A stretch of DNA of 64,000 nucleotides from Tricharina praecox. Taxonomy: Eukaryota. The DNA lies in assembly GCF_024521635.1 (NCBI RefSeq), contig NW_026250419.1:310001-374000 (forward strand), read 5' to 3'. The notes below the pieces were generated by a model. It made no database searches. It saw only the letters and a program-made list of their open reading frames with translations, and was not told where the DNA came from. Of this stretch, positions 6,697-51,433 are shown in pieces; within the stretch, counting starts at the first letter, position 1, and every line of letters starts with the position of its first letter. The position numbers and the translations under genes were made by a program.

Positions 6697-8018
6697 ATGT
6701 CGCACTCCAAACGCAACACATCTCTCGCATTCTTCACGTGAGAAATCCCATACCGCTGTTTCGCGGCCGGTGGTAATCGCTGACATGCCGGATTTACAGC
6801 TCGTACGAACGCTCCCTGCTCAAAGGCGACTACGGCAAGCAACGAACCCGACTCACGCGTGACTCGTTCAAAGCCTTCGATGCGTGCAACCTGTGCCTGG
6901 TGCGAGCGCGCGACCCCGTCGCCTGTCCCAAAGGCGAACTGTTCTGCCGCGAGTGCGCGGTCGAGAACCTGCTCTCGCAGCGGAAGGAGATCAAGCGCAT
7001 GCAGGTGGACCTGGACCGGCGAGCGAAGGAGGACGAGGAGCAGCGCGTGCTCGAGGATGAGGAGGCGAAGCAGCGCGCCGTGAAGGATTTTGAGCTCCTG
7101 CAGATGGGCCTCGAGATCAGGAATAGCAGGGAGAACAAGGGCAAGAGTGTGGTCGGCATGGCGCCGAAGGTCGTGGGAAGGGTGAATGGCAAGATTGTGC
7201 TCGAGGAGGACGAGGAGGAGGAGCCGGCGCAGGGAGACGAGGCCAACAGGAAGCCCGGGGGTGCCAAGAGGAAGTTCGAATTGGACGAGGAGGAGCTCAT
7301 GAGACTTGCACGCGACGAGCGAAAGAAGGCCAAGGCAGCCTTGTCGGAGGAGAAGGTGAGCGACAGCCTGCACCATCCTATATGTCCCCTTGCCTCGTTC
7401 TGACTCGGCTGCATACAGACCAAAGCATCTGCCACCAAGCTCCCGTCGTTCTGGGTCCCCAGCCTGACGCCTTCAGTAGCCAGTACGGACATCACACGGA
7501 AGACGCCGAAGCTGAGTCCTGTGTGCCCTGCGTCGACGAAGGACAACATCCACCACTACTCGCTCAAGACGCTGATATCGGTCAAATTCACGGAGGAGGC
7601 GGACGAGAAGACACAGTATGGTGATCCGCAGCGGATATGTCCGAGCTGCAAGAAGGTGCTGAGCAACAGCATGAAGGCCATGCGTCAGTAACATACCGCT
7701 CCCCCCACCGTCTGTCCGATACGTAGCTGCGGCTAACATGCAGACTCTGCAGTGGCGAAACCTTGTGGGCATGTGGTTTGTAAACCATGCGCGGACAAAT
7801 TCTTGACACCCACGTCCGACGACCCACACGACAAGACTGCGAGATTGGTGCAATGCTTTGTCTGCGAAGCAGATCTCACGAGCAAAGGAAAGCCGTCGAA
7901 GAAGGACAAGGACAAGATCCTCCCCGGCCTGGTGCTGATACAGAGCGACGGCACAGGGTTTTCTGCCGGAGGAGGAAACGTCACGACCGAGAGGGAAGGA
8001 ATAGCCTTCCAGTGCTGA
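6697..8018 (+). CDS. NOSIP-like RING/U-box protein (nitric oxide synthase-interacting protein homologue), 4 exons
   Basis: MSHSKRNTSLAFFT/SYER, RLTRDSFKAFDACNLCL, LPSFWVPSLTP, KPCGHVVCKPC, C-terminal GIAFQC; three canonical introns. Confidence 0.85.
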
Positions 8019-8420
8019 TTGCGTACCATAACCTATATATCTGCTTCCACTACGCGCTGGGGAGGGGGGAGGGGGAAGGAACCAACTGCATCATGACGAC
8101 GGAAGCAGTTGGCATGTATGATACTTTACGTTTCCGCACTAAAGATGCACTCCGAGGCCAGATAAATACTTAGAGATATTTTTAAAGTGCATTCTCCTAC
8201 GACTTCATATGTTCTGCACCCCACGTTAACTTACACTCCTCCTCTCACTGTGCCTCTCGGTGCCCCTCTATCTATCTATCGTACTGCTCCGCTTAGATTT
8301 ATCACCCACCGACCATCCACGACCCATCCCCCGTATATACCGGCCACATGCCAGATAGAGTACCCCTCACCCAACATACCGTAGCCACGCCGCACGCAAG
8401 CAAGCAACTCCGTAAATAGT

Positions 8421-8724
8421 GTTTTGTCAGATTAGATCAAGTAATTTTCCCGTCATCGCCGACTCTCCACGCACCACATCCCGTCGGACCACCCACCCGG
8501 CGCCGCACATCATCACCAGCACCCTCTCGCCCATCCCGCCTCCGAGCGCCTCTGTCAGTCCTCCGAAGAAGAGCGACGCGAAACACGCCCGGGATTCGGG
8601 ATAGGCAAGGCAGGGTAAGTGAGCGGCAGCGCAAGGAGCATCAAAGCATCGGGAGGAAGGACGGGAAGTGTGGCAGTAACGCGTGTGGGTGCGGCTCGAG
8701 TGCTCAGTTATCTTCATCCAAAAC
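8421..8724 (-). ncRNA. Box C/D guide RNA (scaRNA-like), predicted to target U2 snRNA G25
   Basis: Terminal complementarity GUUUUG/CAAAAC; C-like UGGAUGA (8720-8714); D' CUGA (8707-8704); long hairpin with C(UUCG)G; C' GCGAUGA (8459-8453); ACUUGAUCUAA (8442-8432) complementary to U2 UUAGAUCAAGU; D box CUGA (8430-8427). Confidence 0.75.
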
Positions 8725-9419
8725 GAGGAAGGAGATTTTTAAAGATTGTTTTTCTTTTTTGTTTCCTTCCTACGGGAAGAAGAAGAAGAAGAAGGAGAAG
8801 AGAAGAAGAAGAAGAAGAAGAAGGGAGGGAGGGCTGCTGGAGTAGGGATATGGCATGATGGGATGGGTAGGGTTAGCGCGGCTTGGGCTGGGTTGGGCTG
8901 GGTTTGGGTTTGGGTTGCTCCGTCGTCGCTGTCTGGGCCGCCGGGTACACCAGATTACCGGGGTGGCGGAAGGTGACCGGTGCCCAAACTCTTTTCCACG
9001 TCGAACGGACAAGACAAGAGAAAGCGACGGGGGCGAGGGGGACGAGCGAGGCGGGAGCTGAGAGGAGGTGGAGGAGGAGGAGGGGGAGGGGGAGAAGGCA
9101 AATGGAGAAGGCAAAGGGTGACACAGAGCACGGAGCTGTGGCCGGTCAAGCGAAGAGATGCAGAGAGAGAGAACACAGCGAAGAAGGGAATGCATACAAG
9201 GGAGGGGAGGGAGAGTCTGTGTCATGCCTGACAGAACAGAGACAAAGGTGAGTGAATGAGTAAGTGAGAAGGGATTCTGGATGCCCGTCATACGTTTTCG
9301 CGTCAACTTCGTTCCTCCGAATATCAGCACTTTGCATGCGGCTTAGTGAGGGGGAGGGAAAGGGCTGCGTAGGAGGGGGGTGGTAGTGGGTTGGTGGTGG
9401 GTTGGTCACTCAGCCAGCG

Positions 9420-9489
9420 GTGGTGGGTTGGTGGTGGTGGTGGTGATGGTGGTGGAGATGGTGGTGGTGGTGGTGGTGGTGGTGGTGGT
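9420..9489. repeat. (GGT)n trinucleotide tract
   Basis: Imperfect ggtggtggt run seen directly. Confidence 0.9.
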
Positions 9490-10052
9490 CGGGTTTATTC
9501 AGATTGCGCCTAGCTCGCCCTCGTACCTTCCCTTCCGTCCTTTGCTTCGAGGCTTTGCTTGGTTTACTTGCGCGGGAAAGTGAGTGTGTGTGGTTGACTC
9601 TGACATAAATAAGGCGTTTTCCCCCGACCTTGGACTTGTGCTGATTTTTTTCTTAACTCTGAACTGTCCTCTGCCCCACTAAATTCACCCCATTAGGCGA
9701 TTCGCTGCCTTTCTTTGTCCGGTCAATTGCCCGCTTCCGGCAGTCGTCTCTCTCCCGACGACCACACCGCCACAGCCCGCCGCAACTCGCATATCGACTC
9801 CACACATCCCTCCCAATCCAGCGATATTATCTCACTCACTCACCCACTCCCGTCTGTCGGCCAAAACGTCTCATTAAGCCGCCATCGCTGCTTCATCCCC
9901 ACAAAGAAACAAGACGTAAAGAAGAAGAAAGAAAGAAAGAAAGAGAGACAGTGTGTTGGAGTGAGAGAAAAGAAAAGAGAAGAAAGGAAAAAAGAAAGAA
10001 CAGAAAATAATAGAAGGGAGAGAGGGCGAAAAGAAAGAAGGCGAAAAAGGAA

Positions 10053-49300: not shown

Positions 49301-50520
49301 TTTGATTGTAGTTGTTTGGTAGTTTCGGTAAGGAGGGTTGTAAAGAGATGTCGAGTGTTGAGCAAATGTGGTGAGGGAGTGTGGTTGGTAGTGACTGTAA
49401 AGGTCCAGACTTTAAGCCGCGATAGAGGGGGAGGGAAAGAGCAAGAGAGAAAGGCGGCGAACGAGTGAAGAAATAGAAGTGAATGTGGTGTTGGATTATC
49501 GTATATTGTTTGCCGCGGAATTTGAACGGGGAAGCTAGCTTCCTTATACTACGCCTACCTTACCCTTCCTCACTCTTAATCATCCCGGGCGTTTCATCCG
49601 AAAGGGTCAGATCGTTTAAAAAGGTAAGGGTGAAATAATCTAGACCCGTTCACTGAATGTCAATCGCATTGACATTCACCTCGGTGCACGCCGTATCCAT
49701 GGTTCCCCCTGCATCGATATTACTATTACTGCACATGTATATCGCCCCACAGACGTATCCGTACAGCTGGGGTGTACGCAGTTGTAGATCCCGGAAGTGA
49801 GGGGGGACAGCAGGAGGAATTGAGTGATTGTTCCAGCGAGTGCGAGGTAGTGCAGGTAGGAAGCCCTAGCGGCCAAATGCAGGGACACAGCCACGCTAAG
49901 AGGGCGCTTGCGCTTCGGTCACTTACCCCATCGAGCGACAGGTACCCCCGTGGGCTAAAGTTGGCAGAATCTCAAACTTATGTCAGCCCGCTCTAGTTAC
50001 CCGGTGCCTGTCACACTATAATAATCCGACTCTTCTTCCCCCTCATTCCCACTCCTCAGGTGTCCCCCCTCATCGAAGCTGCGTTTCTGTGCCACAAACC
50101 GACACTTCATCTACCCGATGCTCGTCGTCTCCGTCCCCTGCACATGAGAAATTCGGAGAAATCTTCAGTCACTACACCAGTCTTTGTGCTGGCTGCTCGC
50201 AAGGGCCTGGCGTGAATCACGTCTGCAACAGGCATCAGAAAACCAAGGGCCCTCTCTCAAAAAGAGGTCACCCTGTGGAAGTCTTTGCGAAGATTGTGGA
50301 TGATGCCATCTTAGTGCAATACGCAGCGTGCTCTTGTTTCTTTCTCCTCCGGGAGAGAGGAATGGGGGCATAATTCGATTCCGATTACTCCGATGAGGGG
50401 GGCACCTCACTTTTTTCTTCTTCTTCAGGTCGGTCACTACCTCTTCCCGCTGTGAGGAGTTCTACTAATTTGAGGGGGCGGTGATGGGTAGCGAACGGTG
50501 TCGGGGGAAGGCGACGGGCG

Positions 50521-51325: not shown

Positions 51326-51433
51326 GGCAGGATGGCCGAGTTGGTTATGGCGCCAGGTTAAGGTCACCTTAATACAATCGTTCCGATTCCTGGTTCGGGA
51401 AACTGAGCGTGGGTTCAAGTCCCACTCCTGTCA
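51326..51433 (+). tRNA. tRNA-Leu(AAG) with a 24-nt intron (51364-51387)
   Basis: Acceptor stem GGCAGGA/TCCTGTC+A, A box TGGCCGAGTTGG, anticodon stem CCAGG/CCTGG with loop TT-AAG-G, variable arm TTCGG-GAAA-CTGAG, T arm GTGGG-TTCAAGT-CCCAC, downstream T-run terminator; intron CCTTAA pairs with the anticodon loop. Confidence 0.95.

Follow-up and report, generated by a model that had tools for sequence, protein, structure and literature searches.

On the minus strand of a 64,000-nucleotide stretch of DNA from Tricharina praecox (contig NW_026250419.1, positions 310,001 to 374,000; hereafter the window, with its first letter as position 1), positions 8724–8421 are predicted to form a box C/D guide RNA gene of ~304 nt with a conserved guide against U2 small nuclear RNA (snRNA), an assignment to which we give a probability of about 0.78. 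Sequence comparison places this RNA as one member of a conserved, fungal-looking RNA family, which is probably uncatalogued so far. A sequence-only reading of the window had described a long box C/D guide RNA resembling the small RNAs that are specific to Cajal bodies (scaRNAs), and the family reported below, with its conserved C box, covarying terminal stem, guide and CUGA, bears out the first part of that description; we use "scaRNA-like" to mean a guide for an snRNA and imply no residence in Cajal bodies. The positions which that reading gave for both ends, the boxes, the paired hairpin segments, the C(UUCG)G cap and the guide are all correct on the minus strand.

The guide ACUUGAUCUAAU is complementary over 11 Watson-Crick pairs to the U2 segment UUAGAUCAAGU, nucleotides 23–33 of Saccharomyces cerevisiae U2 by a hand count on the sequence in PMC3177201 (the papers cited here were covered in part, and what we say of them holds for those parts). 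Opposite C22, the guide base adjoining box D is left unpaired; at U8443 an additional G.U pair with U2 is possible. Because an 11-mer is expected about once in 4 million per position, a chance match to U2 is unlikely. Within the 64 kb, the guide together with its D box (ACTTGATCTAANCTGA, allowing at most one mismatch) occurs a single time, and none of 100 shuffles contained a match. The nucleotide five places upstream of box D (D+5), C8435, lies opposite G26 of S. cerevisiae U2, which corresponds to human G25, and the earlier claim that D+5 lands on the G of UUAG thus holds. This U2 nucleotide is located at the start of U2/U6 helix Ia, beside the catalytic core of the spliceosome.

By analogy with the established C/D mechanism, the C/D and C'/D' motifs would fold into kink-turns (K-turns) to which Snu13 and Nop56/Nop58 bind, the guide would pair with U2 nucleotides 23–33 (S. 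cerevisiae numbering), and fibrillarin (Nop1) would 2'-O-methylate the nucleotide paired with the fifth guide position upstream of D, that is, G26 or human G25. Human U2 Gm25 is listed as guided by scaRNA2 (PMC7960923), and Arabidopsis U2 is methylated at G26, with no guide named beside that entry in Table 3 of PMC8053127. In Neurospora crassa, primer extension showed that U2 A31 is methylated via the guide CD29 (PMC2780460), which indicates that the methylation machinery acts on this region of U2 in filamentous fungi; Afu-191 of Aspergillus fumigatus is a predicted guide for U2 Am32 (PMC2377427, Table 1).

We scanned metagenomes with the pattern GATGA-N(3-25)-ACTTGATCTAA-N-CTGA, which comprises the C' core, a gap, the guide with a free base before D, and box D. 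The scan returned 101 loci representing 76 distinct sequences, the window included, and 61 of the 76 additionally contain, 90–291 nt upstream of box D, a C-box heptamer, a GAGC motif and a flank able to pair as a terminal stem. Membership was defined by the heptamer, by GAGC or a one-letter variant of it no more than 16 nt from the heptamer, and by complementarity between the 5' and 3' flanks; removal of identical RNAs left the 59 members that we refer to as the family. The recurrence of the C box, GAGC and terminal stem in 61 of the 76 distinct metagenomic sequences that carry the 3' motif, conservation in relatives being a check that the sequence-only reading had named for itself, indicates that the features of the window copy are more than chance. 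In 33 of the 59 members, GAUGA and the guide are separated by 10 or 11 nt, and this clustering, as opposed to a spread over the permitted 3–25 nt, argues that the scan matches themselves are not fortuitous. The base adjoining box D is left free by the pattern; among the 101 loci it is most often U, which the window has too, and is A, G or C in others.

From C to D the family members measure 90–291 nt, most of them 120–215 nt, with the window copy, at 291 nt, exceeding all others. The relatives nearest to it are L081 (276 nt) and L025, L045 and L099 (263 nt each). The C box reads AUGAUGA in 42 members, GUGAUGA in 8, AUGACGA in 7 and AUGAAGA in 2. Similarity between the window and L025 is confined to 8726–8414, so that the RNA is bracketed at its predicted ends; identity is 83% and 80% at the two ends, against 40–53% in between. 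On this comparison the ends of the RNA are under sequence constraint and the interior is not. Fifteen of the 76 distinct sequences failed the membership definition. Five of these (L014, L023, L030, L031 and L055) have 3' halves that look family-like by eye, and the other ten (L002, L004, L005, L021, L024, L059, L072, L074, L088 and L100) look like chance matches. In L059, the match at ~701–740 is a chance one in which a guide-like 19-nt unit is tandemly repeated in an unrelated contig.

The terminal stem is conserved as a helix. Its positions 1–4 are paired in 53, 54, 48 and 46 of the 59 members through GC, AU, CG, UA and GU pairs, compared with 24, 10, 44 and 14 when the register is shifted by one. 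We then used an alignment (A1) of the 31 members with a C-to-D length of at most 160 nt, without L075, for which the assignment at 90 nt is open to doubt, and tested on it a named structure of 12 pairs composed of the terminal stem and the two K-turn helices. These pairs are formed at 80.2%, against 65.8% in shuffles, and the covariation score is 0.471, against 0.234 (in both cases 0 of 500 shuffles scored as high); sliding the partners by 1–3 columns left 25–55% paired. Changes on both sides were observed at 10 of the 12 pairs, a number that 27 of 500 shuffles reach, and at all 6 pairs of the terminal stem.

A canonical box C/D K-turn is built from a helix, three unpaired nucleotides, a G-A opposite a G-A, and then C-G pairs. 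The internal motif follows the same order, with a helix, three unpaired nucleotides (G-A-U), a G-A facing the G-A of D', and then C-G pairs. A GA directly 5' of a helix of at least 3 bp abutting GAUGA is present in 36 of the 59 members, as opposed to 4–18 of 59 at six decoy anchors, and in those 36 the pairs beyond the GA.GA step are formed in 32 (4n-4b) and 29 (5n-5b). Members that lack a strict GA at D' carry AA instead, or GAU with an extra U. Pairing in A1 amounts to 93.5% for the closing helix of the C'/D' motif and to 78.9% for the helix that flanks it. Basal helix pairs covary among members as GAC/GUC, GAU/AUC, GUCU/AGAC, GGCAU/AUGCC, GCCC/GGGC and GCC/GGC, with GCCG/CGGC in the window.

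K-turn geometry and the family register together fix the C, D' and C' boxes of the window copy at 8717–8711, 8699–8696 and 8456–8450, which revises parts of the sequence-only reading (the resulting layout is given in the table). For its C box, UGGAUGA at 8720–8714, the family register lies 3 nt downstream (AUGAAGA); its C' box, GCGAUGA at 8459–8453, includes the GAUGA core and shifts by 3 nt downstream in the K-turn register (AUGACGG). The proposed D' box, CUGA at 8707–8704, has to be abandoned, as it is unconserved, reads UUGA in L025, CCGA in L081 and UAGA or AAGA in other relatives, and forms part of the conserved GAGC; the D' box in family register, UCGA, lies 8 nt further downstream. The claim that no room is left for a 5' guide falls with it, since the 11 nt between C and D' would fit one, even though the family conserves no fixed-register guide at this place. 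Within this stretch, GAGC (8705–8702) has invariant G, A and C columns and at least 90% conservation of its second G in the 31-member alignment. Its distance to D' differs between members, which argues that it is not a fixed-register methylation guide, and the 11-nt stretch probably guides no second methylation.

We also considered, and rejected, a shorter RNA starting from a perfect GUGAUGA at ~8513. Such an RNA lacks a complementary terminal stem, the 5' end indicated by the family is 8724, and the heptamer is unconserved in L081 (GUGAUGU) and in L025.

Table. Layout of the predicted guide RNA in the window copy (RNA read on the minus strand, 5' to 3').
Feature	Position	Strand	Remark
Terminal stem, 5' half, GUUUUG	8724–8719	-	pairs with CAAAAC
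G8718	8718	-	first nucleotide of the C/D K-turn loop, unpaired; follows the 5' half of the terminal stem
Box C, AUGAAGA	8717–8711	-	family register; consensus AUGAUGA
C-to-D' spacer, UAACUGAGCAC, 11 nt	8710–8700	-	contains GAGC 8705–8702
Box D', UCGA	8699–8696	-	its GA lies opposite the second GA of GAUGA in the K-turn
Internal hairpin, 238 nt	8695–8458	-	from the fold and the covarying basal helix
Hairpin basal helix, GCCG with CGGC	8695–8692 with 8461–8458	-	C-stem of the C'/D' K-turn
Apical loop, UUCG	8567–8564	-	C(UUCG)G at 8568–8563
C' K-turn	8457–8453		G8457-A8456-U8455, 3-nt loop; G8454-A8453, sheared pair positions
Box C', AUGACGG	8456–8450	-	K-turn register
Spacer, GAAAAUU, A-rich	8449–8443	-	between C' and guide
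Antisense guide, ACUUGAUCUAAU	8442–8431	-	upstream of box D; U2 complement
Box D, CUGA	8430–8427	-	
Terminal stem, 3' half, CAAAAC	8426–8421	-	

Folding was another check that the sequence-only reading had named, and the 304-nt RNA reaches -139.6 kcal/mol against a shuffle mean of -112.7 kcal/mol (z = -5.28), with none of 100 dinucleotide shuffles as stable. The fold of region 8461–8695 comprises 87 pairs (54 G-C, 19 A-U and 14 G.U). Within this region, CUUGCCUAUCCCG at 8609–8597 pairs with CGGGAUGGGCGAG at 8538–8526, and CCACACUUCCCGUC at 8673–8660 with GACGGGAUGUGG at 8485–8474, all on the minus strand. The stem had been described as inserted between D' and C'. Its position is right, for in the relatives too it sits between a D'-type GA and C' on a covarying basal helix; its description as an insertion is not, because it is no foreign element: all members have a hairpin at this place, of ~40 to ~240 nt, and that of the window is the largest. 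Stability of the inner region varies across the family, with z against shuffles of -4.8 in the window, -3.3 in L081, -0.3 in L025 and -0.2 in L099, a median of -1.6 over all 59 members, and values below -2 in 24. For the long clade of five sequences, RNAalifold predicted 82 pairs, 19 of them with compensatory changes, to which we give little weight because only three of the sequences are effectively independent.

In the window hairpin the K-turn closing helix has most likely expanded in a lineage-specific way, the expansion being either tolerated or accessory. An alternative that is compatible with the U2-guide assignment, and that we consider unlikely, is that the hairpin is a separate functional module and not neutral, serving as a nuclear-body or other localisation signal or as a Dicer substrate that yields small RNAs. 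Such a role would suit the stability of the window hairpin far above that of shuffles, and it has a precedent in vertebrate C/D scaRNAs, including the 330-nt U90, whose apical hairpins carry a terminal stem that directs Cajal-body localisation (PMC4041459). It sits poorly with an interior that is so divergent even from the nearest long relative clade, with a length that varies about threefold, and with the low share of members with clearly stabilised inner regions. The window hairpin contains no GU or UG repeat of at least 3 units, and with 14 of 87 pairs G.U it lacks the G.U/U.G wobble-stem signal of the vertebrate RNAs. A sequence motif also speaks in favour of a module: the shorter members (for example L035, L041 and L097) share a helix-like GAARCC ... 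GGUUYC inside the hairpin, at A1 columns ~84–92 and 125–140. In the window, a weak look-alike, CGAAUCC ... GGAGGCG, can be seen by eye near 8598–8592 and 8544–8538.

We compared sequencing runs over positions 7400–9800, comprising two metatranscriptome libraries and the transcriptome runs X1 and X2. Each metatranscriptome library yielded one contig, 8471–8713 and 8448–8638, both wholly within the predicted RNA, and none on the flanking genes, which hints at a stable RNA. The study from which both libraries come also includes a possible source sample. In X1, a contig over the upstream gene stops at 8093 and no contig covers 8094–8833. In X2, a single contig spans 7417–9406; neither run reveals strand or processing. 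Relative to the window, the X2 contig carries a 26-nt insertion at 9392, where repeats rich in GGT/GGTGG occur; it probably reflects a simple repeat that varies between strains. In runs X8–X20 a fraction of 0.03 of the words matched, which may stem from the (CTT)n repeat next to the RNA.

Several points weigh against the assignment as a U2 guide RNA. The guide, the D box and GATGA were required by the scan, and their invariance is not independent evidence because it is built into the pattern. The window C box, AUGAAGA, is off consensus (U5 to A). Without a given structure, RNAalifold predicts 0 pairs for the 31-member alignment, which has short helices and a poorly aligned central part, and the structural claims therefore rest on the named helices and their controls. 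The metatranscriptome contigs show neither strand, ends nor abundance, and both runs belong to one study. The U2 pairing is shown for S. cerevisiae U2 only, and guide complementarity was compared with U2 alone. S. cerevisiae U2 is itself reported to have no 2'-O-methylated residues, according to the part of PMC7960923 covered here, and in the literature we found no U2 methylation measurement at the G26-equivalent site in any fungus.

The last of these points would also fit a genuine C/D RNA for which U2 is not the methylation substrate. The 12-mer would then pair elsewhere, with rRNA, pre-rRNA or another snRNA, or the RNA would have a chaperone or other non-guide role, and the U2 match would be a coincidence or a contact without methylation. 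Fungi do have long orphan C/D RNAs, such as the 212-nt CD53 of N. crassa, and the U2-guide model leaves the conserved GAGC unexplained. We nonetheless regard this alternative as improbable, because an exact 11-bp match lies directly upstream of box D, D+5 falls on a nucleotide that is methylated in both human (PMC7960923) and Arabidopsis (PMC8053127) U2, and the neighbouring A31 is experimentally methylated via a C/D guide in N. crassa (PMC2780460). That there is no RNA gene at all, and that short, degenerate boxes (C and D' being off consensus in the window) and a U2 complement arose by chance in structured DNA between two protein genes, is extremely unlikely given an architecture that 61 of the 76 distinct sequences share and whose three helices show compensatory changes, a similarity to L025 that stops at the predicted ends, and contigs from two RNA libraries that lie only inside the RNA.

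The U2-guide RNA and its relatives appear to be missing from the catalogues that we compared. Across the whole window, Rfam 15 at gathering score matched only RNase P and a tRNA, both elsewhere; over 8200–8950 at E ≤10 it gave chance-level matches only, the best C/D match, to archaeal sR28, scoring 10.4 bits where the threshold is 39; and 20 relatives gave 0 matches at E ≤0.1. A literature search that included the guide sequence itself found no fungal guide for the U2 G26 site and no paper containing the guide sequence. In "The fungal snoRNAome" (PMC5824354), the main text names no U2 target of the G26 kind, and the covered parts of the N. crassa and A. fumigatus papers (PMC2780460, PMC2377427) list no guide for G26.

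Four kinds of known RNA invite comparison. Human SCARNA2 (mgU2-25/61) is, like the predicted RNA, a long C/D RNA acting on an snRNA and is listed as the guide for the equivalent nucleotide, Gm25, but it also serves Gm11 and Cm61 in U2 (PMC7960923), whereas the RNA described here has a single conserved guide. The Rfam SCARNA2 model matched neither the window nor the 20 relatives, and the two look like RNAs with the same job that are either unrelated or diverged beyond recognition. N. crassa CD29 and A. fumigatus Afu-191, which resemble human SCARNA9, use a D guide on the same stretch of U2, 5 nt further 3' (Am31/Am32). They differ in their size of 92–101 nt, in targeting A31 and not G26, and in having no long internal hairpin (PMC2780460, PMC2377427), and CD29 has a second guide, for 5.8S rRNA (PMC2780460). 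The vertebrate intron-encoded C/D scaRNAs mgU2-47 and U90 share the combination of an snRNA guide with a long hairpin in mid-RNA, which in their case is a G.U/U.G wobble stem made of GU repeats (PMC4041459), in contrast to the repeat-free window hairpin with its C(UUCG)G loop. Finally, CD53 and S. cerevisiae snR4 and snR45 are likewise unusually long intergenic fungal C/D RNAs. CD53 is reported without rRNA or snRNA complementarity in the covered part of PMC2780460 and without a clear target in snoStrip in that of PMC5824354, unlike the present family with its exact U2 complement; the family is set apart from CD53 by description and not by sequence.

The 304-nt RNA lies in intergenic DNA, as the sequence-only reading had supposed, between two plus-strand genes. 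The upstream gene encodes a zf-NOSIP domain (34.5 bits, cutoff 30) and contains a 69-nt GT..AG intron at 7684–7752 (+), confirmed by spliced contigs in two transcriptome runs; the downstream gene encodes a histone-fold CBFD_NFYB_HMF domain (26.6 bits, cutoff 21.4). This spliced intron and a nuclear RNase P RNA establish that the window DNA is eukaryotic. The nearest protein-atlas clusters are eukaryotic and most often from Ascomycota, which we take as a lead only. The RNase P RNA (RF00009) is a full-length match at 50072–50394 (+), with 57.3 bits against a threshold of 28. A 108-nt tRNA gene (RF00005) with an extended variable region follows at 51326–51433 (+) with 46.9 bits; 29 nt extra after its anticodon arm are consistent with an intron.

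Directly upstream of the guide RNA, on the RNA's strand, is a (CTT)n/(GAA)n microsatellite (8746–8833), and L081 and L060 have a comparable CTT-rich tract ahead of the RNA. As for a promoter, TTTAAA occurs 26 nt upstream of the C box in the window, and the relatives have no TATA-like element at a fixed position. Several relatives (L007, L033, L035–L038, L047, L063, L064, L025 and L045) carry a 5'-splice-site-like GTAAG, GTATG or GTAAC ~50–60 nt upstream of the RNA, and CTAAT or CTAAC followed by YAG ~50–65 nt downstream of it. Both intron-like motifs were present in 12 of the 57 relatives examined, by regular expression and without a chance control, which suggests that the copies of some relatives may be intron-encoded. 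With the same expression, the window copy showed neither a 5'-splice-site-like motif upstream nor a branch point plus YAG downstream.

Taken at its widest, the finding would be the first described member of an uncatalogued, widespread fungal C/D family, in which filamentous fungi methylate a U2 helix Ia nucleotide and the hairpin with GAARCC/GGUUYC is a functional module for localisation, assembly or a second U2 contact via GAGC; we put this forward tentatively. For annotation, it represents an RNA gene in apparently empty intergenic DNA that Rfam 15 misses. The family shows clearly how a C'/D' K-turn can accommodate a closing helix that has grown from tens of nucleotides to hundreds, and its conserved 3' signature could serve as a template in the search for the Arabidopsis guide of U2 Gm26. 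A conserved guide in filamentous fungi predicts that methylation of U2 G25/G26 is ancestral and was lost in budding yeast, and the loss of one small gene would offer a genetically tractable test of the role of this single methyl group.

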